From Candidatus Collierbacteria bacterium (GTDB taxonomy: Bacteria > Patescibacteriota > Microgenomatia > UBA1400 > JACPES01): a stretch of 64,000 nt of DNA. How positions within the stretch are numbered: the stretch's first letter is position 1; every line of letters starts with the position of its first letter. This document shows, in pieces, positions 3,196-54,411 of this stretch. The notes beneath the pieces were generated by a model, which was not told where the DNA came from, searched no databases, and saw nothing but the letters and a program-made list of their open reading frames with translations. The translations under genes and the position numbers were made by a program. The stretch covers positions 169,467-233,466 of the forward strand of contig JACPES010000003.1 in assembly GCA_016183365.1 (NCBI GenBank), written 5' to 3'.

Positions 3196-3597
3196 ATGAA
3201 CAATAAACAGGAAACAAGAAACAGGAATCAAGAAACAATGATAGTCAGGGCGGAATCGTCCGTTATCAGACAATCGGTCAGAAAAATGCAGTTGGTGACC
3301 AGAGCCATATCCGGAATGACCCCGGCTACGGCAGTAGAAGTTTTACAGTTTATGGATAAAAAAGCGGCTGAACCGATTGGAAAAACTATCCAACAAGCTA
3401 TAGCCAACGCGACTAATAATTTGAAAATCGCCGAAAGTTCTTTTGGCCGATTGTTGGTTGAACTGCAAGAGGGGCCGACGATGAAACGGTGGCGGATGGG
3501 AAGCCGGGGCCGGACCAAGCCGATTTTGAAAAGGACGGGGAAAATAGTGGTAAAGCTGTTTGTAAAAATCAATGAACAAAAAACAAAAAACAAATAA
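3196..3597 (+). CDS. rplV: 50S ribosomal protein L22. The alternative start at 3238 removes an A/C-repeat-encoded N-terminal extension.
   Basis: MIVRAESSVIRQSVRKMQLVTRAISGM... is L22-like. The N- and C-terminal extensions are encoded by the ACAAAGAACAAA repeat. Confidence 0.85.
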   Translation: MNNKQETRNRNQETMIVRAESSVIRQSVRKMQLVTRAISGMTPATAVEVLQFMDKKAAEPIGKTIQQAIANATNNLKIAESSFGRLLVELQEGPTMKRWRMGSRGRTKPILKRTGKIVVKLFVKINEQKTKNK

Positions 3598-3653
3598 CAA
3601 TAAACAAAGAACAAAGAAACAAAAACGCTCTTTGCTTTTTGATTTTTAATTTT

Positions 3654-4727: not shown

Positions 4728-4930
4728 GTCGGAAAAAAATGATTTTGCCAAAAGACCTGACGGAGCTAAAAGCTTTGTTGAGCGAATGGAGCCAAAAAAG
4801 GCAAAAACTGGAACTTGAGTCTGCAACCGGAAAATTAAAGAAAATATCAGATTTGGCAGACGCCAGAAAAAAGATGGCTCAAATACTGACTAAAATCAAC
4901 GAGCAAAAGAATAGTATAAAAACGATATGA
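4724..4930 (+). CDS. rpmC: 50S ribosomal protein L29
   Basis: A 68 aa helical protein between L16 and S17, with an LKALLSEW...KLELESATGKL signature. Confidence 0.8.
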   Translation: MSRKKMILPKDLTELKALLSEWSQKRQKLELESATGKLKKISDLADARKKMAQILTKINEQKNSIKTI

Positions 4931-5196
4931 AAATACTTACCGGAGTGGTTATCAGCCCCAAAATGGAAAAATCAGCCACAGTCAGGGTGGATAGAATGTG
5001 GCGTCACCCAATTTATAAGAAGATGATGAAAAGATCTAAAAAGTTTTTGGTCCACGCGGAAAGTCCGGTTAAAGCCGGTGAAATTGTCAAAATAGCCGAG
5101 ATTAAGCCTATGAGTAAGTTAAAGAGGTGGAGGATAATAGAAGAAGCAAAAAACAAAGAACAAAAAACAAAGAACAAAAAACAAGAGAGAAAATGA
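4927..5196 (+). CDS. rpsQ: 30S ribosomal protein S17, with a Lys-rich C-terminal tail encoded by the A/C repeat.
   Basis: LTGVVISPKMEKSATVRVDRMWRHPIYKK is S17-like. The tail EAKNKEQKTKNKKQERK comes from the repeat. Confidence 0.85.
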   Translation: MKILTGVVISPKMEKSATVRVDRMWRHPIYKKMMKRSKKFLVHAESPVKAGEIVKIAEIKPMSKLKRWRIIEEAKNKEQKTKNKKQERK

Positions 5197-5567
5197 TTCA
5201 ATTAAGGACAGTTTTAACCGTAGCAGATAATACCGGAGCCAGAAAATTGCGGGTTTATATGATTCATGGAGGATCTAAGCGCAAATTTGGCAATATTGGA
5301 GATTTTGTGGGAGCCTCGGTTATCGAGGCGATTCCGGAATCGCAATTTCCGGCCGGAACTAAAGTTAAGGCAGTCATAGTCAGAACCAGACATCCATTGC
5401 GCCGCCGAGATGGATCAAGAATTCGTTTTGACGATAACGCCGGGATTATTTTGGAAAGTTCCGAAAGCAAAAATCCGGCCGGGAGCAGGGTTTTCGGGCC
5501 CATTGCCCGGGAAGTGAAAGAGGCGGGATTCACAAAAATCGCGTCCCTGGCGGAAGAGGTGGTATAG
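5193..5567 (+). CDS. rplN: 50S ribosomal protein L14
   Basis: MIQLRTVLTVADNTGARKLRVYMIHGG. Its ATGA start overlaps the S17 stop. Confidence 0.9.
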   Translation: MIQLRTVLTVADNTGARKLRVYMIHGGSKRKFGNIGDFVGASVIEAIPESQFPAGTKVKAVIVRTRHPLRRRDGSRIRFDDNAGIILESSESKNPAGSRVFGPIAREVKEAGFTKIASLAEEVV

Positions 5568-5611
5568 GAGTAGAGAGTAAGGAGTAAGGAGTAGGGAGTA
5601 GGGAGTAGGGA
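5568..5611. repeat. Six tandem heptamers GAGTARG (an array of Shine-Dalgarno-like AGGAG motifs) between rplN and rplX.
   Basis: The sequence gagtagagagtaaggagtaaggagtagggagtagggagtagggag is read directly from the window. Confidence 0.8.
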
Positions 5612-5621
5612 GCAAAAAATT

Positions 5622-6484: not shown

Positions 6485-6662
6485 AAGAAGTAAAATTGTC
6501 AAAGCCGAAAGGTTAAAAGATCACCCGACTAAGGCCCGGAACAGATGCCGGCGTTGCGGCAGGCCAAGGGGATATATCAGGATTTTTGGCATTTGCCGAC
6601 TATGTTTCAGAGAATCAGCTCATAAGGGGGAATTGCCGGGAATCGTTAAGGCATCGTGGTAA
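6478..6662 (+). CDS. rpsN: 30S ribosomal protein S14, zinc-binding type Z. It probably starts at a GTG.
   Basis: [23 protein letters not shown]...KASW matches the 61 aa Zn-ribbon form of S14. Confidence 0.85.
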
Positions 6663-9156: not shown

Positions 9157-9420
9157 ATGTCGGTTTTAATTCATGAGCCGGTGGCAGTGGTAGCGGTATT
9201 TAAGAATGGCCGGGTGAAGCCCGTAGTGTTTCGATGGAAGGACAAGAAAATTTCCATCGAGAGCGTTTCTTTTATGTGGCAAACAACGCAGGGAAAAGAA
9301 CATTTTCTTCACTTCACTGTTATTGCTTCTCAAACATTATACGAATTGCTGTTTAATATTTCATCAATGGTATGGAATCTGGAACGGGTTGAGACAAACA
9401 TCGGAATTTCTACTATATAA
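9157..9420 (+). CDS. Hypothetical 87 aa protein.
   Basis: An ORF preceded by TTGACA-N18-TAAAAAT. I recognise no family. Its position between rplO and dinB is unexpected. Confidence 0.35.
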   Translation: MSVLIHEPVAVVAVFKNGRVKPVVFRWKDKKISIESVSFMWQTTQGKEHFLHFTVIASQTLYELLFNISSMVWNLERVETNIGISTI

Positions 9421-9450
9421 AATGTTATATAACATTTTATATAAAGTAGC
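9408..9450. repeat. Near-perfect palindrome of about 40 bp centred on AAAATGTTATATAACATTTT (copy 1).
   Basis: The sequence ctactatataaaatgttatataacattttatataaagtag is read directly. A second copy lies at 48601-48640. Confidence 0.8.
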
Positions 9451-9480: not shown

Positions 9481-9516
9481 ATTGTCTTAACTAATAACCA
9501 ATAACCAACAACCAAT
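9481..9516. repeat. A/C-rich AACCAATAAC repeat (copy 1, intergenic).
   Basis: The sequence ctaataaccaataaccaacaaccaataactt is read directly. A related copy sits in-frame in mltG at 57950-57995. Confidence 0.7.
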
Positions 9517-9521
9517 AACTT

Positions 9522-10766
9522 ATGCAAACGACTATTATTCACGTCGATTTCAATTCGTATTTTGCCAGCGTGGAACAGCAGAAAAATCCATTTCTGCGGG
9601 GCAAGCCGGTGGGAGTGATAAAAGCAGATGGCCGGACGGTAATTATCGCCGCTTCATACGAGGCTAAACGGCGTGGAGTTAAAACCGGCAGCAGCGTTTT
9701 TCAGGCCAAGCAACTTTGCCCGGATATTTTATTGGTTCCGGCTGATTTTGACAGTTACGATTATATTACCCGTAAATTTTATGCAATTTGCCATAGATAT
9801 AGTGATTTGGTGGAGTTATTTTCTCTGGATGAAGTTTTTTTGGACGTTTCCCGGACGGCTTTGTTATTTGGCGGAGCCGGAGAAATCGCCCTGTTATTGA
9901 AAAAAGATATTCGAAAAGAACTGGGAGAATGGTTGCCGGTCAGCGTCGGCATCGCCAAAAATAAGTTGTTAGCTAAGTTGGCTTCGGACTTGGAAAAACC
10001 AAACGGATTAGTGGAAATTACCGATAAAAACCGCGACGAGTGTTTGGGCCGGGCGGAATTTGAACAAATTTGCGGCATTGGCCGCCGGTTGGAACAAAGG
10101 CTGAAAGATATGGGGGTTACTCAATTACTACAGATTAGATTCATCTCCGAGAAGTATTTGGCGGCAAGCTTTGGCCCCTATTGGTCGAAGCAATTAAGGA
10201 AAATGACTTGGGGAGAAGATAATTCTCCGATAGTTCCCTCATATCAGTTGCCTTTGCCTAAATCCGTTTCCCGGACGCATACTTTATTTAAAGATATTTT
10301 CGAGCAGGAAGAAATTTTAGCCGTCGTTAGAAATTTAGTTGAAGAGGCCGCCGAAAAACTAAGGCTGGCTAAAATGTCCGGACGGCAGTTTGGCCTAATA
10401 GTCAGAAACGGAGAAAAAAGCGAGGTAAAATTTGTCACCCGGAAATACTGTACCAGTGATTCGTTAAATATTTTCCAAGAATTAAAAAGTTTGTTTCTAT
10501 CTATAAAATGGCGTGAAGGGGTCAGATTTTTAGGCGTCTGGGTCAGTTTACTGGCGGAAGAAAATAATTTGCCCCAATCGCTTTTGCCGGAAGTTAACCG
10601 CCGACTATCGATTTTATCCGTCCAGGACCGGATTAATTTAAAATTCGGCCATTACACCCTGTTTCCGGCGAATTTACTGCAGGCTTCAATCATTCATCCG
10701 GAAGTCAATGGGTTTTTGGGAGACGAGAGAATAAAAAATAGGATAGGGTCTTTATCCATCGTTTAA
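9522..10766 (+). CDS. dinB: Y-family DNA polymerase IV (DinB/ImpB type).
   Basis: MQTTIIHVDFNSYFASVEQQKNPFLRGKPVGV ... SVGIAKNKLLAKLAS matches the UmuC/DinB palm and finger motifs. Confidence 0.85.
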   Translation: MQTTIIHVDFNSYFASVEQQKNPFLRGKPVGVIKADGRTVIIAASYEAKRRGVKTGSSVFQAKQLCPDILLVPADFDSYDYITRKFYAICHRYSDLVELFSLDEVFLDVSRTALLFGGAGEIALLLKKDIRKELGEWLPVSVGIAKNKLLAKLASDLEKPNGLVEITDKNRDECLGRAEFEQICGIGRRLEQRLKDMGVTQLLQIRFISEKYLAASFGPYWSKQLRKMTWGEDNSPIVPSYQLPLPKSVSRTHTLFKDIFEQEEILAVVRNLVEEAAEKLRLAKMSGRQFGLIVRNGEKSEVKFVTRKYCTSDSLNIFQELKSLFLSIKWREGVRFLGVWVSLLAEENNLPQSLLPEVNRRLSILSVQDRINLKFGHYTLFPANLLQASIIHPEVNGFLGDERIKNRIGSLSIV

Positions 10767-14488: not shown

Positions 14489-16392
14489 TCAACCGGTGAG
14501 GAGGTGAGACAGGATTTCGGAAGGGAGACGGACGCGGCCGAATTGAGCCAGGCGTTTTTTGCCCTTTTTTTGTTTTTTTAATAATTTATCTTTCCGGGTT
14601 TGGTCTCCGCCGTAAAGCTTGGCGGTAACGTCTTTTCTCAACGCCGGTTTGGTTTCGCGGGCAATTATCTCTGCACCAATAGCGGCTTGGATGGGGACGG
14701 CGAATTGTTGGGAAGGCATCAACTCCTTTAGTTTTTCCACCATTTGTTTGCCGATTTGGGTGGTTTTGGACTTAACGATTATCCGGGACAAAGATTCGGC
14801 CGGTTCGTGGTTTAATAATATTGTCAGTTTGACTGCTTCAACCGGTTCAAGACCAATAATATCGTAGTCCATGGTGGCAAATCCCCGGGAAGCCGATTTA
14901 ACTTCATCAAACATGCCGCTGACCAATTCAGCCAGAGGAATAATGTAGGTCAGTTGGGCCCGGTTGCCGACAAAATTGGTATTGAGATATTTTCCGCGCC
15001 GGCTTTCGGCGATTTGCATGAGAGACCCTAGATATTCCTGAGGCGTAAAAATCATAGTCTTGGTCATTGGTTCTTTTACCTGGACAATCCTTGACGGATC
15101 GGGAAAATCGTTGGCGTTTTTAATAGTTAATGTCTGGCCGTCGGTGGTTTGGGCTGAATATTCGACGGTCGGCAAGGTCATAATAGTCGGCAAGCCAAAT
15201 TCTTTTTCCAGTCTTTCTCTAGTGATCTCAAGATGAAACAAGCCCAGGAAACCGCATTGCAGGCCGGGGCCTAAAACTTGAGAGAATATTTGTCGTGACG
15301 ATAGGCTGGCATCGGATAGTTTCAATTTTTCAAATCCTTCCAAAAACCTTTTAAAATCTTCCCCTTCGTCCGGATATAAATCAGCATATAAACTGGGTTT
15401 GGGCTCTCGATAGCCCGACAGTGGAACTAAAGAATTGAGAATAGGAAAGACGGTAATGGTGTCCCCGGCTTTGACCTTGCGGATATCTTTAAGGCCGGTA
15501 GCGATATAACCGACTTGGCCTGTCTCTAATCTATCTATTTGAGTTCTCTTTGGCGTAAAAATACCGATTTCTTTAGGCAGAAAATTCTGACGGAAGGCCA
15601 TTAGCGATAGTTTCTCACTGGCTGCAAGTTCCCCGTCGACAATTCTGACGAAGGCTATAACCCCCAAATGTTGGTCGTAAGTCGAATTAAAAATTAATCC
15701 CCGCAGGGGTAAATTTTGATTCCCTTTTGGGGCAGGTAATTCGGTTATTATCCGTTGGATTAAGTTTTCTACGCCCTGGCCGGTTTTAGCGGAAATCAGC
15801 GAGACCTCATTTTCTTTAAATCCAAACGCATTGTTTAGTTCAGTTAGTACTTCCGGGACATTGGCATTGGAAAGGTCGATTTTATTAATTACCGGAATTA
15901 AATACAGTTTTTGGGCCAGTGCCCGTTGAGCGTGAGCCAAAGTTTGGGCCTGAATTCCTTGAGTGGCATCTATTAATAGTATGGCGCCTTCGCAAGCCGC
16001 CAGACTCCTGTCGACTTCGTAGGCAAAATCGACGTGGCCGGGAGTGTCGATGAGATTCAGAATAAAATATGACGATAGATGGTTGAAGGTAGAAGATGGT
16101 GGTTGAGGATGGAGGATAGATGGTAGACGGTTTTCTATTTTCGATTTTCTATCTTCTACCACTATATTCAATCTTCTATCTTCTATCGTCTTGTTTTTCC
16201 ATTTCATCGTCACCGGCGCCAAACTGATAGTCACTCCGCGTTCGCGTTCGATGGGATTGGAGTCCAAAATTTGTTCCCGCATCTGCCTTTTTTCGACCGT
16301 GCCGGTAAATTCCATCAGCCTGTCTGATAATGTCGACTTTCCGTGGTCAACATGAGCAATTATTGCGAAATTTCTGATATTTATTGAAGTCA
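14489..16392 (-). CDS. lepA: Elongation factor 4 (LepA), with an in-frame insertion of about 35 aa in the G domain. The start is probably a GTG near 16392.
   Basis: NFAIIAHVDHGKSTLSDRL, DTPGHVDFAYEV, and the C-terminal LepA domain. The ORF track extends upstream to 16501. Confidence 0.85.
16081..16200. repeat. Inverted-repeat-bounded low-complexity element of about 120 bp, in-frame inside lepA.
   Basis: The termini are gacgatagatgg... and ...ttctatcttctatcgtc, with internal gatagaagat/atcttctatc repeats. It encodes IVVEDRKSKIENRLPSILHPQPPSSTFNHLSSY, which is absent from canonical LepA. Confidence 0.6.
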
Positions 16393-17045: not shown

Positions 17046-17105
17046 TTATGATTTCAATTATTTTCAAGCAAAGCTTGAACCTTCTCTGCAGGAAAATAAT
17101 TGAAG
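17046..17105. repeat. Hairpin repeat with 13 bp arms TTCAATTATTTTC / GAAAATAATTGAA around a 28 nt loop (copy 1).
   Basis: Read directly. Related copies lie at 17466-17495 (arms only) and 48665-48719 (similar loop). Confidence 0.75.
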
Positions 17106-21801: not shown

Positions 21802-23169
21802 ATGCAGAGGGTAGTTAAAATTCCGACACTATTGGGATTAATAGTATTAGTGGCAGGACTGATCGGTGGCATAATAATGATTAATAGCCGTCAGCAAGTA
21901 GTGACTAAAGTTGCGGCTTCGCCGACGCCTCAAGGGGTGGCTTTGTCAAATATTACTGATAGGTCGTTTACGGTTAGTTGGACAACTGCGTTTCCGGCCA
22001 CCGGTTTTATCAAATTAATGCCGCAAGGCAAGCTATCAGAGAAAATTATTCTGGACGACCGGGATAGGGATAAGGGCTCTCAAAATAAGCGGACTGTCCA
22101 TTATGTAACTGTTGACTCTTTGACGCCTTCAGAAACGTATAAATTTGTGATTGGCGGAGACAATAGTCAATTTGACCAGAACGGTTCGCCGTTTTCCGTC
22201 CGGATAGCTCAAACTTTGTCTTCGGCGCCGCAGTCTGACATCGCCAGCGGAGTAATTTTATCCGAAAATGGCCAGGCAGCGGAAGGCATAATCGTTTATA
22301 TCCAGATACCCGGCGGCCAATTGGCTTCAGCTTTAAGCGGCAGCGACGGGAGATGGGCGGCACCTCTATCGGTCGTCAGGACAGAAAACGGAGATTCCTG
22401 GTTGAATTACGATTTAAGCGCCACCATTTATGCCGTTAAAGCCGACGGCGGACCGGAGGGGATAGCGGATGCAATTTTAACTACAGCTATAGATAAACCG
22501 GTTCCTCCTCTAAAACTCGGAAATTCTTATGATTTCCGCCAGAGCAAAGAATCGGTATTAAGTGAAGGAAACAAACAAAATCCTTCTTCCGAAAAGCCTT
22601 TTTCCGATGAAACTGAAATAAACTCATTATTTGATTTTTCTTCTTTGGGACCGGTAACTCCTTTAAACGAAGGGTTGACTTTAGATAATCCCAAAAAGGA
22701 AGGCGAGGTTATTTATACCGATAAACCGGAATTCTTTGGGTCAGGTTCGGCCGGATCCTCGGTTGAGGTAGTGATTGAATCTGCAAACACTATTACCGGC
22801 GAAATAAAAGTAGACGGTAGCGGCAAATGGTCGTTTCCGGCCACGGCTAATCTTGAGGATGGCAACCATACTATTACATTGAAATGGACCGATGCTAATG
22901 GGATTGTTCAGGTATTGAAGAGGTCATTTGTGGTAAACGCCGCTTCCGGCCGTCCGGCATATGTTTCTACTCCTTCGGCTACACCGACTTCAAAATCTAA
23001 AACCCCCACTCCAACTATCCCGCCCAATAAATCAGTTCCGTCGACTTCGTCCGGAATACCTAAATCCGGCGGCTTGACTCAAACTGTCATCATATTTATG
23101 ATAGGATTAACTTTGGTGGTAACAGGTCTATTTTCTACGGTTAAACCCAATAAAAATTTAATTAAATGA
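21802..23169 (+). CDS. Secreted, anchored surface protein with an FN3 / purple-acid-phosphatase-N-like domain and a C-terminal TM anchor.
   Basis: TDRSFTVSWTT...VHYVTVDSLTPSETYKF is FN3-like. The C-terminus has an IPKSGG motif, a hydrophobic segment and KPNKNLIK. Confidence 0.45.
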   Translation: MQRVVKIPTLLGLIVLVAGLIGGIIMINSRQQVVTKVAASPTPQGVALSNITDRSFTVSWTTAFPATGFIKLMPQGKLSEKIILDDRDRDKGSQNKRTVHYVTVDSLTPSETYKFVIGGDNSQFDQNGSPFSVRIAQTLSSAPQSDIASGVILSENGQAAEGIIVYIQIPGGQLASALSGSDGRWAAPLSVVRTENGDSWLNYDLSATIYAVKADGGPEGIADAILTTAIDKPVPPLKLGNSYDFRQSKESVLSEGNKQNPSSEKPFSDETEINSLFDFSSLGPVTPLNEGLTLDNPKKEGEVIYTDKPEFFGSGSAGSSVEVVIESANTITGEIKVDGSGKWSFPATANLEDGNHTITLKWTDANGIVQVLKRSFVVNAASGRPAYVSTPSATPTSKSKTPTPTIPPNKSVPSTSSGIPKSGGLTQTVIIFMIGLTLVVTGLFSTVKPNKNLIK

Positions 23170-24521
23170 CCGATAAACTATCCAATAATACTCCAGTCCC
23201 TTTCATTCCAACGGTTGACCCTTCGGTTTTACCGGATTCTCCGCCCCCGCAGGAAGTAGCGGCGGATCCGATTACGCCGTTACCATCTATGTCACCTTTG
23301 GCTGCTAACCCGACCACAGAATTTGGCGTTCCGGAACTTAAAGCTGAAACCATGATTGAGCCTGATCCACCTAAAGCCGTGGCGGAAAATCCGATAACCC
23401 CATCTGCTTCGCCTGTTCCGGAAGAAAACCCGGCTATCCGTCCGCCGGGGGCTTCATCAGCGGTTGGAAATAAATCCGGGGATCCATATATTAAACAACA
23501 TCATGGTTTACCAAAGGCAATAATAGCCGGCATTGCCTCATTGGTGTTTTTGATTGGGGGTTTGGGCGCCGGCGTCTATCTCTCCCGCCAAAAACAAAGT
23601 TCCAAGATTGAGGCCTCGGTATGTTCTCCAAATGGAGTAACGGAGAGATATTGCAACTCAAGTGTCTCTCCGGAAGCTAATAAATGCCATTCCTGTCAAA
23701 ATAACGAGTGGCAAGAAGACAGCGATTGCGCCGGATTAACTTGTAATGCTTGCGGCGATACAAATAATCCCAACGATAACACCACTTGTCAAGCGGGCGG
23801 AGGTGGCGGAGGTGGCGGAGGTGGCGGACAAGCAGGAACATGTACAGATACGTCATGCTCTGCGGATACTAATCAGTTTGTGCGGCACTTTGTGTGCGAC
23901 AGTGCCCTCATTGGCGGAAAGTGCGAACCAGGCACTCATGGAGGAGAAGTTGTTTATGATTCAGGAGACAACAGAAATAATAAATATGCTTCGTTTCGTG
24001 GGGACTCATGTACGTCGGAACAAATCGATCTGTTTAATAATGTGGGAGACCCTTATACGGAGGGATTTGTGCAGTTTATCGCCCGTAATAACGACTTTAG
24101 CAATTGTGGAGCCCCCACAAGCACCCCAAGGCCGACCCCCACTCCCACGTCGAGGCCGACACCAACGCCAACACCGACACCGAGGCCACCATCAGCGACT
24201 CCGACGCCGGTGACGATTTCCGCCAACTGTGAAAGTTTGGTGGGTCAAGTATCGAATGGTGCCGGCGGGTGGACCAGTAAAACCGACAGCGAGTTTGTGG
24301 CCGCGGTCCGACCCGGAGATAGAGTCCGATTTGTTTGCACCGGCCACAAGACGCAGGGTTCCTTCACCAAATCGGCGTTTTTCATTAACAGCATATTGCA
24401 TGTGGACGATGTAGTGAAATTGAACGAGACCCAGTTTGCGGTGGAATACACCATCTCGGCGGCAGGCCAATTGGAAGTAGAATCGGTGCTTTTGCACGAC
24501 ACGAAAGGATGGGTGGATTAA
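23166..24521 (+). CDS. Cys-rich surface protein with a poly-Gly run and Pro-Thr linker repeats.
   Basis: A TM segment, a Cys-rich module (CHSCQN...CNACGD), an 11-residue Gly run and a PTPTPT linker. I recognise no family. Confidence 0.45.
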   Translation: MTDKLSNNTPVPFIPTVDPSVLPDSPPPQEVAADPITPLPSMSPLAANPTTEFGVPELKAETMIEPDPPKAVAENPITPSASPVPEENPAIRPPGASSAVGNKSGDPYIKQHHGLPKAIIAGIASLVFLIGGLGAGVYLSRQKQSSKIEASVCSPNGVTERYCNSSVSPEANKCHSCQNNEWQEDSDCAGLTCNACGDTNNPNDNTTCQAGGGGGGGGGGGQAGTCTDTSCSADTNQFVRHFVCDSALIGGKCEPGTHGGEVVYDSGDNRNNKYASFRGDSCTSEQIDLFNNVGDPYTEGFVQFIARNNDFSNCGAPTSTPRPTPTPTSRPTPTPTPTPRPPSATPTPVTISANCESLVGQVSNGAGGWTSKTDSEFVAAVRPGDRVRFVCTGHKTQGSFTKSAFFINSILHVDDVVKLNETQFAVEYTISAAGQLEVESVLLHDTKGWVD

Positions 24522-25051
24522 TGATAATTACTCAAAAACAGAAAAGATTGATGACCATAGGCGGAGTATTGTTGGTGTTGGCGCTGTTGATTATCGCGGT
24601 AATGACGGCTTTGAGGCTGCAGCAGATCGGGACCGAACCGGTGGTCCCCAGCGTCCCCAAAAGCCAACCTCGGGCCCAGGCTGCCATTCCGACTCCGGGA
24701 GCAGACAGCGCCTGCCGCAAAACTTGGACCATTGCGCTAGCGCCGACACTGACGCCCACTCCGACGTCTACTCCGACTCCAACCGGAACCTTAACTCCGA
24801 CTCCAATCGGCACTCTGACACCGACGCCGACTTCTACCCCGACTTTGACTCCCACCGGGACCCTGCAACCAACTTCTACCGGTACCATCATTCCGACTAA
24901 CACTTCTGCCCCTTTGGTTCAGGGACCAACTGCCATTCCTACCGTGGCCCAACAACAGGCCTTGCCTCAAGCCGGGGGCATCGGCCAAACATTAGGTGTC
25001 ATTGTCGCCGGTTTAGGGGCGGTAATCTTGGGAATACTTCTTATCCTGTAA
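24509..25051 (+). CDS. PT-repeat surface protein with an LPQAG-type sortase-like C-terminal signal.
   Basis: Tandem TLTPTPxGT repeats; the C-terminus has LPQAGG followed by a hydrophobic segment. Confidence 0.45.
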   Translation: MGGLMIITQKQKRLMTIGGVLLVLALLIIAVMTALRLQQIGTEPVVPSVPKSQPRAQAAIPTPGADSACRKTWTIALAPTLTPTPTSTPTPTGTLTPTPIGTLTPTPTSTPTLTPTGTLQPTSTGTIIPTNTSAPLVQGPTAIPTVAQQQALPQAGGIGQTLGVIVAGLGAVILGILLIL

Positions 25052-25060
25052 AATCATCTG

Positions 25061-26266
25061 GTGAAGATTGCAATTGTGGGGGCGGGATTTGCCGGTTTGG
25101 CGGCGGGACTGGAACTAGCAAAAGGTGGAGTTGAGGTCAAGATCTTTGAATCCCAAGATAAAATCGGCGGTCTGGCGGTTGGATTTAAGGAGCCAAATTG
25201 GGATTGGTCGGCGGAAAAGTTTTATCATCACATCTTTACCAACGACTTAGATATTATCCGTTTATCAAAAGAAGTCGGGATAAGCCCCATATTCTTGAGA
25301 CCCAAAACTTGTGTTTATTGGCACCGGAAAATTTACCCTTTTGATTCTCCGATTGATCTAATGAAGTTTTCGGGATTAAGTTGGATCGATAAATTTAGGA
25401 TGGGAATAGTTTTGGCTTTGTTCAAGCTATTACCTAACGGAAAATTTTTGGAAAAATGGACTGCCGAAAAAGGGCTTAAATTTTTGATGGGCGAGAACGG
25501 GTATAAGACAATATGGGAACCATTGTTAACTGGTAAATTTTCTGAATTTGCAGGTCTTGTTAACCTGGCCTGGTTTTGGGCCAGGATAAAAAAACGAACC
25601 CCAGAATTGGGGACATTTCCCGGCGGCTTTCAGGCTTTGGCCGATAGAATTGCCCAAAAGATAATAGAGTCAGGCGGAAAAATCCACCTAAATAGCCGGG
25701 CAGATGTTAATATTCTTCAAAATACATTTGACGCCGTCTTGACCACTACTATTTTTTCTCCCACTCCTCACTCCTTACCACCCACTCTTTATCTCAATGC
25801 CCACGTTCTATTTCTGGAATTAAACCGGCCATTTTTACCCCCGAATATTTATTGGCTGAACATTTTGAATAGGGAATTTCCCTTTTTGGTTGTCTGCGAG
25901 CATACCAACTTTGTCGGAACAGAACGCTTTGGCGATAAACATTTACTATATTTGGGGAATTATCTTCCTGAAGATCATAGGCTATTTACCTTAACCTCGG
26001 AAAAGATCCTTCAGGAGTTTTTACCATGGCTATCTAAGATTAATCCGAATTTTTCAAGAAAACAGATCAGCAAATTTTTTGTTTTCCGCGGCCCTAAAGC
26101 CCAGTCGGTGATGACTCTCAATTATTCCCGCCGAATTCCGCCTATCAAAGTCAATGAAAAATTATATTCCATTAATCAGGCTATGATTTATCCTTGGGAT
26201 AGAGGTACAAACTACGCGGTGGAATTAGGACAGAAGGCGGCGAGAGAGATAATTAATGATTTATGA
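25061..26266 (+). CDS. FAD/NAD(P)-dependent oxidoreductase (amine-oxidase / phytoene-desaturase-like). GTG start.
   Basis: MKIAIVGAGFAGLAAGLELAKGG ... FESQDKIGG shows a Rossmann dinucleotide-binding motif. Confidence 0.65.
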   Translation: MKIAIVGAGFAGLAAGLELAKGGVEVKIFESQDKIGGLAVGFKEPNWDWSAEKFYHHIFTNDLDIIRLSKEVGISPIFLRPKTCVYWHRKIYPFDSPIDLMKFSGLSWIDKFRMGIVLALFKLLPNGKFLEKWTAEKGLKFLMGENGYKTIWEPLLTGKFSEFAGLVNLAWFWARIKKRTPELGTFPGGFQALADRIAQKIIESGGKIHLNSRADVNILQNTFDAVLTTTIFSPTPHSLPPTLYLNAHVLFLELNRPFLPPNIYWLNILNREFPFLVVCEHTNFVGTERFGDKHLLYLGNYLPEDHRLFTLTSEKILQEFLPWLSKINPNFSRKQISKFFVFRGPKAQSVMTLNYSRRIPPIKVNEKLYSINQAMIYPWDRGTNYAVELGQKAAREIINDL

Positions 26267-26355
26267 AGTATGAATTATGATTTATGAATTAGGCAAACAT
26301 AAACAAAAGTATTTGCAATTTATTCATAATTCGTAAATCGTAAATCGTAATTCAG

Positions 26356-36410: not shown

Positions 36411-36607
36411 TTATTCTATAGAGCATTTGTATAAAAGTCAAATACAGAGACGGTTGGATAAACCAGTACCAGATGGTACGTTCTTCTGAAGGGCGCGGAA
36501 TCTATAGATTCCAGCTCGAGGTTGGAATGACATCGAGATGGAGTTATTTAGCGCTTTTAAGTTATGGTTGGCATAGTCGGATTGCCAATGCTACAATAAA
36601 TACTCTT

Positions 36608-37897
36608 ATGACCAGAAAAATTTTGCGTTATATTTTTAGATTGTGGAGCAATAAAGAGTTGAGGAAAAAGATTCTTTTTACCGCCGGGATGATTTTTGTT
36701 TTCCGGTTCGTGGCCCATATTCCTTCTCCCGGGGTTGATCAAACCAAGTTGAAAGAACTATTTGCCTCGTCCCAGCTTTTAGGCTTATTGGACGTTTTTT
36801 CCGGCGGAACACTGTCTAATTTTTCGGTTATGGCTTTGGGAGTCAATCCTTACATTAACGCTTCAATTATCCTGCAGATGTTGACCATCGTGATTCCGCC
36901 TTTGGAGGCTTTGTCGAAAGAAGGCGAGTACGGCCGGGAAAAAATTAACCAATACACCCGGCTTTTGACACTTCCACTGGCGGTAGTTCAGGCGATTGGG
37001 ATTTTAGTGTTTTTACGCTCTAAAGAAATTTTGGCAGTTTCCAATCCGGCGGCGGTTTTATCCATGGTTTTGACAATGACCGCCGGAACCATGCTTTTAC
37101 TATGGCTAGGCGAACTGATTACCGAATACGGGCTGGGAAACGGGGTATCGTTGATAATTTTTGCCGGTATTGTCGGCAGATTGCCGGTGTCGCTCATTCA
37201 AACTTTTTCCATAGCCGATACGGTTAGTCTGCAAAATATTTTTATTTTTACAGGTTTGGCTTTGGGCGTGATTGCCGGAGTGGTCATGATTAATGAGGCG
37301 GTCAGAAAAGTAACCGTTAATTATGCTCGCCGGGCCCGGGGAAGCTCTTTGGTTGGCGGCCAATCGACTCATTTGCCTTTAAAAGTTAATCAGGCCGGAG
37401 TAATTCCGATAATTTTTGCGGTTTCCATCGTGCTTGTGCCGAGTATGGCCGGTAATTTATTGGCAGCCGTCCCCAATCCGATCGTGTCTCAAGTTGCCCG
37501 GAACCTATCAGCGGCGTTTGTGCCGGAGTCTTTAGCTTATACCCTGACATATTTCTTTTTAGTCTTGGGATTTACGTATTTTTATACGGCAGTTATTTTT
37601 GATCCCGTTAAAATCGCCGATGAGGTCAAAAAACACGGCGGGTTTGTTCCCGGCATTCGTCCCGGAAAATCAACTGCGGATTATTTATCATACATAATCA
37701 CTAGGATTACATTGGCAGGAGCGTTGTTTTTAGGTATAATCGCCATTTTGCCGAATCTGGCTCAGAAATTATCAGGGGTGGCAACGCTGTCCATCGGCGG
37801 CACCGGAATATTGATTGTAGTTTCGGTAATTTTAGAAACAGTTAACCAGATTGAGGCGATGATGGTAACCAGGAGTTATGACAAGTTTTTGGAGTAG
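36608..37897 (+). CDS. secY: Preprotein translocase SecY.
   Basis: [44 protein letters not shown], polytopic. The ORF track extends upstream to 36473. Confidence 0.9.
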
Positions 37898-39609: not shown

Positions 39610-39726
39610 ATGAAAGTACAATCGTCTATTAAAAAACGCTGTGATAACTGTATAACCGTCCGCCGCCGCGGCGTGCTTTACATTATTTGTAAATCTAATC
39701 CGCGCCATAAGCAAAGACAAGGATAG
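39610..39726 (+). CDS. rpmJ: 50S ribosomal protein L36.
   Basis: [38 protein letters not shown]. Confidence 0.85.
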
Positions 39727-39734
39727 GAGGAAAA

Positions 39735-39832
39735 ATACTAAAATACTGAATACTAAATTCTGAATGATAACAATAATCCACGCACTGCGCGTGGCATTCA
39801 GTATTCGGCATTCAGAATTAGGTATTGCATTT
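39735..39832 (+). promoter_or_regulatory. Structured leader upstream of rpsM: paired CTGAAT / ATTCAG repeats flanking a ccacgc-actgc-gcgtgg hairpin.
   Basis: Read directly. The arrangement could support nested or pseudoknot pairing. Confidence 0.4.
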
Positions 39833-45979: not shown

Positions 45980-46005
45980 AATGATTTACGATTAGCGTTT
46001 AGCGG

Positions 46006-46968
46006 TTAACGATTATCGATAGGTGATTTCCAGTCGTGACTTGAAAAAATCCAATCGATAAGTTTTTTGGTTTCTCCAAATCTGTCCTGGCTTCCGAATA
46101 AGCCGATAATCACCTGATGCCCGTTTCTGTCAACCAGAGTTATTAAATTTTCTCCGGCTAAATCAGTCAGCCCGGTTTTTATGCCTTTAACCCCATCAAC
46201 AGTTCCCAATAATTCATTGGTATTTTTTAACCGATGAATAATATTGCCGTCCACAGTCTTAATTTCTTTTTGTTTGGTGTTGACAATATCTGCGAATAGC
46301 GGATTTTTAATGGCTTCGGAGGCCAAAATCGTCATATCCCGGGCGGTAGTCTCATGCTGGTACTGGTCAATACCGGAAACGTTTTTAAAAATGGTATTTT
46401 CCAGTCCCAATTTTTTAGCTTTCAGGTTCATAGCTTTAACCATTTCGGCATAGCCACCGGAGTAATTTTCCGCCAGGGCGAAAGCTACATCGTTGCCGGA
46501 TTCCAACAAAAGAGCGTAAAGCATATCGTCAAATCCGATGTGTTCGCCGGATTTTAATTTGATCGTTTTGCCGATGGCTTCGGTGGTTTTGGAAGAAGTT
46601 ACGATTGTATCTGATTTTAAAGATTCCATCGCCACCAGCGCGGTCATAATTTTTGTAGTCGAGGCAGGGCGTATTTTTTGATCGGGATTTTTTATGTATA
46701 CTACTGCCATAGATTGGACATCGAGCGCGTAAACAAATTTGGCCGAAATATATGGGGCTTGAATTCCGGAATTAATTGGATACGGCGACAGACTGAAAGA
46801 AGAAACGGAAACAGGCCTTAAAACAGGTTCCGGCCTGACCGGCGGGATGGACAGACTCGGATTAATTAAAAATGCGATTAATCCGGCAAATATCAGGCTA
46901 GCCGGTTTTTGTTTTAGGCCGGTGGCGTATTGAAATGCCAAGCTCGGCCAGTTGTTTTTCATTGGCAA
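46006..46968 (-). CDS. D-alanyl-D-alanine carboxypeptidase (PBP5/6, S11 family).
   Basis: SxxK (ASTTKIMTA), SGN (LLESGNDVA) and KTG (IKTGLTDLAG) motifs. Confidence 0.8.
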   Translation of the reverse strand: MPMKNNWPSLAFQYATGLKQKPASLIFAGLIAFLINPSLSIPPVRPEPVLRPVSVSSFSLSPYPINSGIQAPYISAKFVYALDVQSMAVVYIKNPDQKIRPASTTKIMTALVAMESLKSDTIVTSSKTTEAIGKTIKLKSGEHIGFDDMLYALLLESGNDVAFALAENYSGGYAEMVKAMNLKAKKLGLENTIFKNVSGIDQYQHETTARDMTILASEAIKNPLFADIVNTKQKEIKTVDGNIIHRLKNTNELLGTVDGVKGIKTGLTDLAGENLITLVDRNGHQVIIGLFGSQDRFGETKKLIDWIFSSHDWKSPIDNR

Positions 46969-48600: not shown

Positions 48601-48640
48601 AAATATAAAATGTTATATAACATTTTATATCAAGAGTTAA
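48601..48640. repeat. Palindrome AAAATGTTATATAACATTTTATAT (copy 2), directly upstream of the DUF1653 gene.
   Basis: A 24 nt segment identical to the copy at 9419-9446. Confidence 0.8.
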
Positions 48641-48664: not shown

Positions 48665-48719
48665 AACTTCAATTATTTTCTTGCGGAGCAGGATCAGGCT
48701 CTGCCTGAAAATAATTGAA
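48665..48719. repeat. Hairpin repeat TTCAATTATTTTC ... GAAAATAATTGAA (copy 3).
   Basis: Same arms as the copy at 17046-17105, and the loops share ...tctgc.gg. Confidence 0.75.
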
Positions 48720-48781
48720 GTATATTCAAGATTCTTATTTCAGACTGCCGATCGGCAGTCGCTAATAAAAGTATTTGGTTT

Positions 48782-50457: not shown

Positions 50458-51843
50458 ATGACATTTCAGTTGCCGAGTGAAGTAATCAACATTCTGCAGG
50501 GGTTAAAAAAATCAGGATTTGATGGTTTTGTGGTGGGTGGAGCGGTGCGGGATTTATTGACTAAGCGTCAAGTTGATGATTGGGATTTTACCACCAACGC
50601 AACTCCTGTCGAGATTCAAAAAGTGTTTCCCGGAAGTTTTTATGACAATCAATTCGGGACAGTGGGAATCCCCCGGGATGGCAATATTTTTGAAATCACG
50701 ACTTTCAGGACGGAACATGGATATTCTGACAAAAGACGGCCGGATAAGGTGGAGTGGGGAAAAAGTTTGGAAGAAGATTTAAGCCGGCGGGATTTTACGA
50801 TTAACGCCATGGCGCTACAAACAAAAAACAAGAAACAAAGAACAAAGAACGATGAATTAGAGGTAGAAATAATTGATCCATTTGGGGGACAAAAAGATTT
50901 GGAGAAGAAAATTATTAAGGCGGTAGGGGATCCAAACCAAAGATTCGGCGAGGACGCTTTGAGAATGATGCGGGCTATTCGCTTGGGAGCCGAATTGGGA
51001 TTTGGAATTGAAGGTCAAACTTTAGAAGCCATTAAGAAAAATAAAGATTTAATCAGGGAGATATCTGGGGAAAGAATTAGGGATGAATTTTTAAAGATTG
51101 TCGGCAGTCCTTATCCGGCCGATGGAGTTAAACTGTTATATAGCACCGGGTTGTTAGAAATTATCTTACCGGAATTGGTTAAGGGGGCAGGAGTGCCTCA
51201 AGGCGGCCATCATATTAATGACGTTTTTACCCACTGTATCGAAAGTTTAAGATTTTGTCCCAGTCAAGACGCGTGGGTGAGGTTGGCGACTTTGCTTCAT
51301 GATGTTGGTAAACCGGACACGATGATGATGCGTGATGGTAAACCGACATTTTATAACCATGAAGTGGTTGGAGCCAGGTTAGTTAAAGTAATTTCCGATA
51401 GGCTACGTTTACCGCGGGAAAAAAAAGACTTCTTATGGAAAATGGTTCGTTGGCATATGTTCGCTTACAACCCGGAAATGACAGATTCCGCCATTCGCCG
51501 GTTTATGCGCCGGGTGGGAAAAGACGATATTCCGAAGATGATCGAACTGCGGGTTGGCGACAGAAAAGGCGGCGGCAGCAGGGAAACCAGTTGGAGGCTG
51601 GAAGAATTGAAACGCCGGATTGCCGGGTTAATGAACGATCCGTTAACCGTGGCCGATCTTAAGATTGACGGATTTGATGTAATGAAAACACTTAATATTA
51701 AACCCGGGCCGGTAATCGGCAAAGTCTTAAATTTTCTATTCGAGGAAGTTTTGGAAGATCCTAACAAAAATACCTCGGAATATTTACTGTCTAGAATTGC
51801 GGTGGCGGTACAATCTAAAGATAACCAGCAAAGCCCCGATTGA
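50458..51843 (+). CDS. cca: CCA-adding tRNA nucleotidyltransferase with an HD domain.
   Basis: GGAVRDLL, an HD motif (LLHDVGK). It contains the in-frame A/C repeat QTKNKKQRTKND. Confidence 0.8.
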   Translation: MTFQLPSEVINILQGLKKSGFDGFVVGGAVRDLLTKRQVDDWDFTTNATPVEIQKVFPGSFYDNQFGTVGIPRDGNIFEITTFRTEHGYSDKRRPDKVEWGKSLEEDLSRRDFTINAMALQTKNKKQRTKNDELEVEIIDPFGGQKDLEKKIIKAVGDPNQRFGEDALRMMRAIRLGAELGFGIEGQTLEAIKKNKDLIREISGERIRDEFLKIVGSPYPADGVKLLYSTGLLEIILPELVKGAGVPQGGHHINDVFTHCIESLRFCPSQDAWVRLATLLHDVGKPDTMMMRDGKPTFYNHEVVGARLVKVISDRLRLPREKKDFLWKMVRWHMFAYNPEMTDSAIRRFMRRVGKDDIPKMIELRVGDRKGGGSRETSWRLEELKRRIAGLMNDPLTVADLKIDGFDVMKTLNIKPGPVIGKVLNFLFEEVLEDPNKNTSEYLLSRIAVAVQSKDNQQSPD

Positions 51844-53294: not shown

Positions 53295-54411
53295 ATCTTA
53301 AATTTCCGCCGCCGCAGGCTATGGATCCGCGGTATAAAGTCCCGGCAGACACGGCAAAAACCGGAGATCCCGATTCACCGCTTCTTTTCATATCAATACC
53401 GGTGTGGAAATCATAATTAAGGTATTTGGTCCAAAACGTAGCTCCATATATTTGGGTGATAACGATAGGTTCGTCCAACGGCCAACGCCAGCCGCCTGAA
53501 GGCGAGACAGTTTCCGGGACCTTGGAAGTATCATAGTCATAAGATAAATTTGCCGATTTGAGGTAATTAGCCGGATTTTGATTGGCGCCATTTTTTGCGA
53601 CTTCAAAATGCAAGTGGCCTCCGGTTGAACATGGTGAAGCCGTCGGGATAATCGAAGCGATTTTATTTCCCTCTGATACCGAGCCGACTTTTGTTTCTTC
53701 TCCTTTGCCGGCGACGATATTTTGGATAGCGTTTAGTTCTTCTCTGGCTTGGGATAACAAATCCTGATATTTCTTTTCATCATTTTTAGTCAGCTCCAAT
53801 AGTCTTTGCTTTTCCAATTGCCTGGTAGCCAGCGCTGATTTTTGTTTGTTTAATTTCAATTTCAGGCTTTCTACTTCTGCCTGTTTGTCCTCCTTAACAT
53901 TTTTTTGGGTATCGTAATTCAATTTTATTTGTTCCATAGCCACAAAAACATTTTTATCGTGGTTTTGGACTGACCGGACGTATTTAACCCGGTTAATAAA
54001 ATCCGGAAATCCATTGGAGGAGAAGAGAAGGTAAACCGGTTCCAGATACGATTGTTTGTATGTTTCTCTGACTCTGACCACCATCACTTCCGATAAATGC
54101 TCCAACGACTGATCAATCTGGCCGATTTTTAAACTCAAAGCGTTGATATCGTCAGCCAGAATCCCCAACTCTTTTTCGGTTTTGGAAATTTGGACTTGAG
54201 TTAGACTAATTTGGGTATTCAAAGTGCCCAGAGTAGTGGTCAAGGTTTGTTTCTGTCCGGCCAGGTCTTTGAGTTTTTGTCCGTATTCCTGAATTTGCCG
54301 ATTAAGTTCATCCAACTTATCGTTGTTCGACTGGGCATAAACGTAGGGATAAGGGAAAAAGGAAAAAGGGAAAAGAATAACAATCAGCAAACAGAGAATT
54401 AGCAGGCGCAT
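53233..54411 (-). CDS. M23/LytM peptidase with an N-terminal coiled coil (EnvC-like murein hydrolase activator).
   Basis: Long coiled-coil segments and a C-terminal M23 domain with GGHLHFEV. It lies next to ftsEX. Confidence 0.7.
   Translation of the reverse strand: MRLLILCLLIVILFPFSFFPYPYVYAQSNNDKLDELNRQIQEYGQKLKDLAGQKQTLTTTLGTLNTQISLTQVQISKTEKELGILADDINALSLKIGQIDQSLEHLSEVMVVRVRETYKQSYLEPVYLLFSSNGFPDFINRVKYVRSVQNHDKNVFVAMEQIKLNYDTQKNVKEDKQAEVESLKLKLNKQKSALATRQLEKQRLLELTKNDEKKYQDLLSQAREELNAIQNIVAGKGEETKVGSVSEGNKIASIIPTASPCSTGGHLHFEVAKNGANQNPANYLKSANLSYDYDTSKVPETVSPSGGWRWPLDEPIVITQIYGATFWTKYLNYDFHTGIDMKRSGESGSPVFAVSAGTLYRGSIACGGGNLRYVKVDQGDGLSTYYLHVNYI

Follow-up and report, generated by a model that had tools for sequence, protein, structure and literature searches.

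The window studied here is a 64,000-nucleotide (64-kb) stretch of contig JACPES010000003.1 (forward-strand positions 169,467 to 233,466; assembly GCA_016183365.1) from a Candidatus Collierbacteria bacterium. It carries a ribosomal protein operon together with genes for LepA, a DUF2298 ('YYY') membrane protein, the CCA-adding enzyme, YceG/MltG, and other proteins, and scattered through it are short tandem arrays with a period of 7 nt, present at about 14 loci and built from roughly 9 different units; about 8 of the 14 loci lie in or overlap open reading frames (ORFs). A sequence-only reading had picked out five A/C-rich runs, at both ends of the L22 gene, at the 3' end of the S17 gene, and within the DUF2298 and CCA-adding enzyme genes. 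All five runs are present where it placed them and encode the peptides it quoted, but it missed that their unit is in each case a head-to-tail 7-nt sequence, (AACAAAR)n by Tandem Repeats Finder (TRF), and that at least 9 further period-7 loci accompany them. Our analysis covers the 64-kb window and about 200 kb of loci from relatives, which are designated L013, L014, and so on where they need to be told apart.

The 7-nt period stands out from the background by several measures. TRF returns 15 period-7 rows for the window, one of them perfect (x4.7); our own period scan finds 5 strong arrays at period 7, 0 or 1 at each other period from 2 to 15, and no strong period-7 array in 20 dinucleotide-preserving shuffles. 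The 18-mer ACAAAGAACAAAAAACAA has 18 matches in the window with up to 3 mismatches, where shuffles lead one to expect 0.26 and never give more than 2, and 16 of the 18 are on the plus strand within four of the five A/C-rich loci. We also considered whether the motif might be merely the commonest A-rich heptamer, which the background ranks rule out: of the 2333 heptamer classes counted with the arrays masked, AAAAAAC comes 37th (its reverse complement is more frequent, at rank 7), the AAAGAAC class ranks 349th, and the rare GGAGTAG class, at rank 1819, still forms an array. Ranks and shuffles together bear out the earlier suspicion that the motif goes beyond plain background. Further period-7 arrays, by TRF unit and start, are TTTGATT at 3631, GGAGTAG at 5567, TAACCAA at 9488, TTCTATC at 16133, AATTATG at 26251, ATTCGTA at 26322, AATACTG at 39742, CGATTAG at 45989, GGAAAAA at 54354, and ATTGGTT at 57946. 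No Rfam covariance model reached its gathering score anywhere in the window, and a tRNA scan of the window found nothing.

The ribosomal operon holds arrays of visibly different age. The first L22 array, (AACARRA) x5.7 at 3199..3238 on the plus strand (TRF unit AACAAGA; TRF, translation, and alignment), encodes the N-terminal extension MNNKQETRNRNQET, and this extension (MNKKQET.NK) is kept in orthologs down to about 50% identity; the array is old and by now degenerate. The second, (AACAAAR) x8.7 at 3564..3625 (plus strand; TRF and translation), encodes the L22 C-terminal tail and runs on into the L22-S3 spacer, the L22 stop codon being supplied by a variant unit, AAATAAC. This second array is absent in L017, L019, L020, and L021, most relatives ending in FVKKGEK with S3 directly after, and the L22-S3 spacers of L018, L016, and L038 contain heptamer arrays with other units; in L039 the array is one 7-nt unit shorter, which shifts the frame of the tail and gives an L22 of 148 aa versus 133. 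Units in the middle of the L22 array are similar to the ancestral stop region of L22, GAAATAAAC. An inverted degenerate copy (TTTGCTT TTTGATT TTTAATT; 3631..3653, plus strand, TRF) lies immediately 5' of the S3 start codon, and array and copy together fold no better than shuffles as a terminator-like hairpin (z = -0.85). The main A/C-rich runs do lie on the sense strand, as had been claimed; this partial copy in the L22-S3 spacer, which is antisense in orientation, had been overlooked.

Downstream, S17 is lengthened at its C-terminus by EAKNKEQKTKNKKQERK through a 51-nt in-frame insertion, the (AAAGAACAAAAAAC) x3 array at 5141..5191 (plus strand), which TRF describes either as 5141-5184, x5.4, or as a 14-nt super-unit x3.1. 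The array is missing from all six relatives that span the site (L016-L020 and L038); in those relatives the S17 stop and the L14 start overlap as ATGA, and the window preserves this overlap despite the insertion. Assemblies from two other samples (L041 and L043) end at the same base, 5176, inside the array, which is consistent with array k-mers being repeated elsewhere in the genome and confusing assemblers. In the L14-L24 spacer, (GGAGTAR) x6.6 at 5567..5612 (plus strand, TRF) brings a stop triplet and a Shine-Dalgarno-like GGAG with every unit. This 51-nt insertion is absent in L016-L020, where the spacer is 3 nt and the flanks are about 90% identical; the L038 array is 28 nt (4 units) shorter than that of the window, with identical flanks, and the L037 array has the unit GAGTAAW. 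Finally, (TAACYAA) x4.6 at 9488..9519 (plus strand, TRF) stops 2 nt short of the start codon (ATG) of a gene for a DinB-like Y-family polymerase (9522-10766); L037 has an array of this unit class directly 5' of its IMS gene, and another in each of L017 and L020, where position was matched by distance from S3. Neither the GGAGTAR nor the TAACYAA array showed any structure in the fold test. Comparison with orthologs, proposed earlier as a check on whether the runs are insertions, thus gives a clean answer for S17 and a divided one for L22, where the C-terminal array is missing in most relatives and the N-terminal segment is conserved.

These comparisons bear on the simplest alternative, that the runs are independent Lys-rich low-complexity segments produced by A-rich drift and by selection for basic tails on RNA-binding proteins. 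The peptides are indeed basic, ribosomal proteins account for three of the five sites, the N-terminal extension of L22 is conserved as protein, and the AAAAAAC class is fairly common in the background; but drift sits badly with a strict 7-nt DNA periodicity that includes one perfect array, with same-period arrays in non-coding spacers and membrane proteins, with clean insertions relative to close relatives, with the lack of such arrays in shuffles, and with arrays built from units as rare as GGAGTAG. The period scan and the ortholog alignments already contradict it, and we regard it as extremely improbable.

Several observations concern the same operon. Within the old N-terminal heptamer array, some 30-60 nt from the start of the L22 gene, L017-L021 carry a 27-33-nt in-frame insertion that the window does not have; in L017 and L018 it is a GC-rich hairpin, CGCTTCG...CGAAGCG (L017, about 6500-6560), and in L019-L021 it consists of other GC-rich sequences, while L22 entry P0270 has a different 13-residue insertion near that position. 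These insertions recall the small dispersed repeats reported inside cyanobacterial heptamer arrays. The L29 C-terminal coding sequence at about 4890-4915 (AAAATCAACGAGCAAAAGAAT, INEQKN) is closely similar to the start of the L22 C-terminal array at 3563-3590 (AAAATCAATGAACAAAAAACA, INEQKT), and in L038 the L29 tail has grown an AACAAAG-type array of its own plus an inverted copy; the likeness could reflect a seed or donor relation, or chance in A-rich DNA. The DinB-like gene (IMS and IMS_C domains) follows the ribosomal protein operon, L037 being arranged alike, and secY, which usually occupies that place, is found at 36473-37897 in the window.

Outside the operon, arrays recur at the same protein positions with different units. 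The perfect array, (AAAACAA) x4.7 at 35599..35631 (plus strand; TRF and translation), encodes the loop EQNKKQKTKNKKRT between transmembrane segments of the DUF2298 protein; the window has AAAACAA as the unit at this loop, L035 has AAACTCA, and L036 has AAAGTTA/C, yet the three align without gaps at the same length and register, and such gapless arrays, with every unit changed, are the signature of within-array concerted evolution. In the CCA-adding enzyme, (ACAAARA) x4.6 at 50819..50850 (plus strand; TRF and translation) encodes QTKNKKQRTKND in a head-domain loop, about 11 aa being extra relative to structure 1miv. Among 33 homologs, some have nothing inserted after FTINAMAL and the others have peptides of diverse sequence with a 7-residue period, and a second hot spot follows GTVGIP; units at the FTINAMAL site include ACAAARA in the window, AACTCAA in L013, GACAAGG/GCTAAGG in L014, and AAATCCG in a Beckwithbacteria locus. 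A loop of YceG/MltG, ITNNQQPITNNQF, is encoded by a sense TAACTAA/CAACCAA x5.3 array at 57946..57982 (minus strand, TRF), with units at the site of TAACYAA in the window, AGGAAAC in L013, and TTCAAAG in L014. Relatives therefore already hold arrays with other units at the CCA and DUF2298 sites, and these two sites are rewritten hot spots, not new insertions. Two more arrays touch coding sequence: a CCTTTTT sense array at 54351..54375 (minus strand, TRF) specifies LFPFSFFPY, part of the hydrophobic stretch at the N-terminus of an M23 peptidase, and a (CGATTAG)-type x4.6 array at 45989..46020 (TRF, no strand assigned), between convergent genes, overlaps the last codons of a D-Ala-D-Ala carboxypeptidase gene and is identical in L031 and L032, assemblies from two other samples. 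By comparison with solved structures, the inserts sit in loops or at termini.

Further hot spots appear among glycosyltransferases of the relatives: the C-terminus of a PMT_2 enzyme carries CGATTTA x4.7 in L035 (8521-8553) versus GTTAGCG in L036 (4055-4079), the window having no array there, and the middle of a GT4 enzyme carries AATAATG (L035 6305-6320) versus TCAACCA x4.1 (L036 1188-1216). YceG has in addition about 10 extra residues, DISAKGRSASGG, at 58150-58200 (residues about 180-195) relative to its L013 and L014 orthologs; these are unrelated to the heptamer array.

The strand bias of the coding arrays had been offered as a clue to the process that makes them. The bias is real, but translation accounts for it best. 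AACAAAR is stop-free in all frames and reads N/K/E/Q/R/T, its complement reading F/L/C/S/V, and it is among the 120 of 2340 heptamer classes that are both stop-free and purely hydrophilic. As 7 is not divisible by 3, each successive unit is read in a different frame until, after three units, every frame has been used; to persist in an ORF, a unit must therefore lack stops and be acceptable in each of its three readings; in the YceG array, CAACCAA replaces TAACTAA by T-to-C change exactly where an in-frame TAA would fall. In minus-strand genes (lepA and YceG), too, it is the sense strand of the array that is A-rich, and sense arrays rich in T/C do exist, in hydrophobic contexts such as the M23 peptidase N-terminal segment and membrane proteins of the relatives. 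On these grounds we reject a replication-strand mutational bias. Protein-level selection for heptads is likewise rejected, since period-7 arrays also occur in non-coding spacers.

Some arrays are paired with an inverted array. Between an amine-oxidase-like and a PMT_2-like gene, (AATTATG)n is followed by inverted (ATTCRTA)n at 26251..26353 (plus strand, TRF), and the two (26251-26291 with 26322-26353) fold at -29.8 kcal/mol (z = -4.9 versus shuffles). Between rpmJ (L36; ORF 39610-39726, just upstream) and rpsM (S13), an (AATACTR)n array, a GC-rich hairpin, and an inverted array occupy 39734..39819 (plus strand, TRF), the arrays (39734-39765 with 39793-39819) folding at -26.9 kcal/mol (z = -4.6 versus shuffles); the hairpin, CCACGCACTGCGCGTGG at 39778-39794, lies in the loop between the inverted AATACTR arrays. 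The AATTATG and AATACTG pairs have the same units at the orthologous sites of L035 (GCA_016219325). In lepA, an inverted repeat search finds a quasi-palindrome at 16064..16197 (minus strand) whose GATAGAA-type arm is followed, in the sense direction, by a TCTAYCH-type arm; the arms are 64 nt each (16064-16127 and 16134-16197) and 72% complementary, and the whole is translated in frame, so that the G domain is about 41 aa longer (residues 105-145) than that of Aquifex LepA (2ywe).

Such pairs would be expected of a small non-autonomous mobile element, similar to a miniature inverted-repeat transposable element (MITE) or a repetitive extragenic palindrome (REP): an approximately 80-130-nt palindrome with heptamer-array arms that inserts at junctions and loops, direct-only arrays being its decayed halves. 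The window has at least four array plus inverted-array units (3564-3653, 16064-16197, 26251-26353, and 39734-39819), relatives have more (L018 6925-6988, L037 13147-13224, L035 20312-20396, and L038 2122-2219), identical units recur at unlinked loci, and fresh insertions are found at operon junctions. We nevertheless consider a mobile element unlikely: i) the S17 and L14/L24 boundaries show neither a duplicated target site nor a conserved terminus, clean empty-site comparisons being few; ii) array lengths vary by 7-nt steps; iii) many unit families exist side by side; iv) the S17, CCA, and DUF2298 arrays have no inverted partner; and v) no transposase is found among the approximately 30 window ORFs scanned with Pfam.

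The enrichment in period-7 arrays is a property of the clade. A search of GTDB representative genomes with S3 returned relatives of at most 52% identity only, which had no period-7 arrays and served as negative background; close relatives were represented by six metagenomic contigs with an S3 94-95% identical, and further loci were obtained through homologs of the CCA-adding enzyme, the DUF2298 protein, and L22. Taking the best TRF row per place at a score of at least 35, we count as period-7 arrays 11 of 37 in the window (64 kb), 25 of 99 in related Collierbacteria-like loci (160 kb), 3 of 11 in a Beckwithbacteria locus (21 kb), 2 of 11 in a Woesebacteria locus (22 kb), and 2 of 68 in loci of other bacteria from the same S3 query (266 kb); a separate count agreed broadly with these figures. 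The density is 0.9-1.7 per 10 kb in Collier-, Beckwith-, and Woesebacteria loci versus about 0.08 in other bacteria, a roughly 12- to 23-fold enrichment over the background set.

Units are also shared between loci in a genome-specific manner. When three tandem copies were required and up to 2 mismatches allowed, AACAAA[AG] was found at four window loci but nowhere in the approximately 200 kb from relatives; AACTCAA was found at the CCA and DUF2298 loci of GCA_016219325 only (L013 with the CCA gene and L035 with the DUF2298 gene are both from this assembly); and TAACCAA was found at two window loci, 5' of the DinB-like gene and inside YceG. Assembly GCA_016219325 thus has AACTCAA at two loci whose orthologous window arrays both have AACAAAR. 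It is very unlikely that two loci would each have fixed the same two substitutions in every unit independently, and the simplest reading of such shared units, in the few genomes compared, would be that some sequence has passed from one array to another.

An enzyme devoted to writing repeats from a template, such as a reverse transcriptase or a primase-polymerase that uses a short genome-specific template to add or rewrite units at many loci, would account for genome-specific units common to unlinked loci, for equal length and register with every unit changed alike between genomes, and for confinement to one clade. We think it quite improbable, as one genome holds several unrelated unit families, conserved arrays retain their unit between genomes while others change, the approximately 30 window ORFs scanned with Pfam include no candidate enzyme or reverse transcriptase domain, and ordinary slippage already yields indels of 7 and 28 nt. 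The proposal of the sequence-only reading, that a spreading sequence or a templated slippage process had been at work, survives in part: drift is excluded, 7- and 28-nt steps are seen, and a genome-specific unit at unlinked loci fits a templated or spreading process, but there is no discrete A/C-rich element, AACAAAR being just one of many heptamer units.

Copy number changes by whole units, 7 nt between the window and L039 and 28 nt between the window and L038, with conserved flanks. This might suggest phase-variable contingency loci, in which frequent copy-number change switches expression or protein tails within the population, the more so as a one-unit change shifts the L22 tail frame between 95%-identical relatives and some arrays lie just 5' of start codons (9488-9519 and 5567-5612). 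However, ten contigs from other samples of the same study and population are, at the consensus level, 100% identical across the arrays they cover and show no copy-number polymorphism; the genes with internal arrays are essential and single-copy, so that gain or loss of 7 nt would be lethal; and the genes concerned are housekeeping genes, not surface antigens. Phase variation is accordingly very improbable in our judgment. The arrays are no assembly artifacts.

We consider it likely that the arrays are heptanucleotide microsatellites akin to the short tandemly repeated repetitive (STRR) sequences of cyanobacteria, that arise by slippage, have probably been copied from one array to another, and survive subject to selection. 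It can be seen directly that the arrays gain and lose sequence in a 7-nt register, are homogenized internally, include recent insertions, return to the same permissive sites, and pass a translation filter; replication slippage as the cause of the 7-nt register is what we infer from these patterns. The process may be envisioned in three steps. First, arrays grow and shrink in 7-nt steps, the signature of replication slippage with a 7-nt register, and homogenization within each array leaves orthologous arrays perfect in each genome but different between genomes; local seeds are plausible for some families, for example the L22 stop region and GGAGTAR, whose stop triplet and Shine-Dalgarno-like GGAG are what a tight junction contains. 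Second, units may be copied between unlinked arrays, or new arrays seeded from existing ones, perhaps by ectopic template switching or gene conversion. This would account for the dominance of a single unit, different from genome to genome, at several loci of a genome; if such copying changed strands, it could also yield the array plus inverted-array hairpins. Third, as the pattern of survivors shows, selection removes from ORFs any unit that contains a stop or is badly oriented: loops and tails keep A-rich, hydrophilic units, and membrane or signal segments keep units rich in T/C. Surviving inserts total a multiple of 3 nt, and the permissive places are protein termini, surface loops, and the gene junctions of tight operons. 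The outcome is 7-residue-periodic, Lys/Asn/Gln/Thr-rich, probably disordered inserts in L22, S17, LepA, the CCA-adding enzyme, and YceG, and repeat hairpins in spacers.

Several points weigh against this interpretation. Array turnover is slow on the population time scale, because the ten contigs from other samples are without polymorphism. The S17/L14 junction has no evident seed in the relatives, and slippage alone leaves unexplained both the birth of arrays that have no obvious seed, most clearly there, and the occurrence of the same derived unit at two unlinked arrays. The copying step that would fill this gap is drawn from two genomes and a few loci. Moreover, the intergenic hairpin arrays are conserved, and because the AATTATG and AATACTG pairs keep their unit in two genomes, some arrays may be functional and not neutral. 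A bolder proposal, which we advance tentatively and with considerable doubt, is that Microgenomates (Collier-, Beckwith-, and Woesebacteria) possess a heptamer-register process beyond slippage in which ectopic templated synthesis, or conversion, carries genome-specific units from one array to another, unlinked one. Were this so, the process would sometimes switch strands and generate hairpins, disordered inserts with a 7-residue period would continually be made and rewritten in essential proteins and at operon junctions, and the clade would harbor an unrecognized mutational engine of protein and operon evolution in the Candidate Phyla Radiation (CPR) as well as a tractable model for the origin of STRR-type repeats.

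The resemblance to known heptamer repeats is considerable but incomplete. The STRR sequences of Calothrix, Anabaena, and Nostoc are, like the arrays of the window, head-to-tail repeats of a 7-nt unit; they fall into a few families dispersed at many loci, have a lineage-specific repertoire, and are often intergenic. The host phylum (CPR Microgenomates) and the unit sequences differ; about half of the window arrays are inside ORFs, including essential genes, and are predicted to be translated, where cyanobacterial STRRs are predominantly intergenic; and the window lineage documents cross-locus co-variation of units between genomes. We noticed none of the cyanobacterial STRR consensus units among the arrays, although no explicit search for them was made. 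Because host, units, and coding location all differ, the arrays are not cyanobacterial STRR families in the strict sense; in the broad sense they are heptanucleotide long simple sequence repeats (SSRs), with tandem 7-nt units, period enrichment, whole-unit changes, and dispersal of units.

Other systems share some of these features. Calothrix PCC 7601 has three tandem heptanucleotides (PMC4692102). Direct repeats of TAACTGA occur in marine Beggiatoaceae, some cyanobacteria, and Bacteroidetes (PMC4679880); in Beggiatoaceae 2-6 or more copies lie directly 5' of start codons, much as in the window, and overlap with genes is limited by the stop codons that the repeat contains when read forward, while in reverse it can be translated (PMC4679880). 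The window TAACTAA/TAACCAA array, 2 nt before a start codon, is one base away from TAACTGA. In Beggiatoaceae, however, one heptamer dominates and related heptamers rarely repeat (PMC4679880), whereas many units coexist in the window, and TAACYAA occurs also inside YceG, where T-to-C changes keep the frame open. The GGGAATC and GGGGAYT repeats of Xanthomonas and Nostoc are, as in the window, over-represented heptamers whose sites vary in length and sequence between close relatives and sometimes form inverted pairs (PMC4692102), but those repeats are G-rich, G-quadruplex-capable, and intergenic (PMC4692102), where the window arrays are A- or T-rich, cannot form a G-quadruplex, and are frequently coding. 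Borg tandem repeats are likewise fast-evolving, genome-specific, A-biased, of independent origins, and expressed as low-complexity, probably disordered stretches (PMC9879509), but their in-ORF units are always divisible by three and virtually unique to each locus (PMC9879509), in contrast to a 7-nt unit shared between loci and a peptide period of 7 residues per 3 units. A 2007 survey by Mrazek and co-workers, as it is summarized in PMC4692102 and PMC4679880, found heptamers to be the most over-represented bacterial long SSRs among units of 5-11 nt, put forward slippage by a polymerase with an approximately 7-nt footprint as the cause, and reported coding-region units divisible by three. In the window lineage, by contrast, the 7-nt unit is common in ORFs. 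To our knowledge, no CPR genome was available when that survey was made. We found no description of heptamer repeats in CPR, Patescibacteria, or Microgenomates in the literature searched, coverage of which was incomplete, so that absence is not proven.

Heptanucleotide repeats have been recognized for decades in cyanobacteria, Xanthomonas, and Beggiatoaceae, and we know of no explanation for their origin or their 7-nt register. The Microgenomates lineage adds a second, very distant clade with high array density, in which dense metagenomic sampling provides empty, filled, and rewritten versions of the same site, so that array birth, unit turnover, and 7-nt slippage can be read from alignments, and in which unit co-variation across unlinked loci points to copying between arrays. 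A non-triplet repeat is routinely accommodated inside essential genes here (L22, S17, LepA, CCA-adding enzyme, YceG), which bears on how small-genome bacteria gain disordered protein segments; such inserts also distort protein alignments and hence matter for CPR annotation and phylogenomics.

The window contains other repeats that are distinct from the heptamer arrays. Perfect palindromes with arms of 16-25 nt, 0-2 nt apart, lie at 26770-26821, 27222-27259, 31696-31731, and 32205-32238 inside two PMT_2-like glycosyltransferase ORFs, several arms containing an internal AAGGnnnnCCTT sub-palindrome; relative to the L035 and L036 orthologs they coincide with in-frame indels or divergent stretches in variable loops, and they may represent a second kind of small hairpin insertion in this genome. 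Two intergenic hairpins, at 17053-17104 and 48666-48721, have the arms TTCAATTATTTTC and GAAAATAATTGAA in common, and the 12-nt repeat TATATAAAATGT is tandem at two intergenic sites, 9414-9445 and 48603-48630; shared-arm hairpins and 12-nt repeats alike may serve as promoters or operators. The 9-nt unit GGCGGAGGT is repeated perfectly (x3.7) at 23796-23828 in the ORF at 23166-24521, and 6-, 12-, 21-, and 24-nt C/A-rich repeats (CCGACA, ACTCCG) are found at 24156-24852, within that ORF and the next (24509-25051); these are ordinary triplet-compatible repeats and probably encode Pro/Thr-rich linkers.

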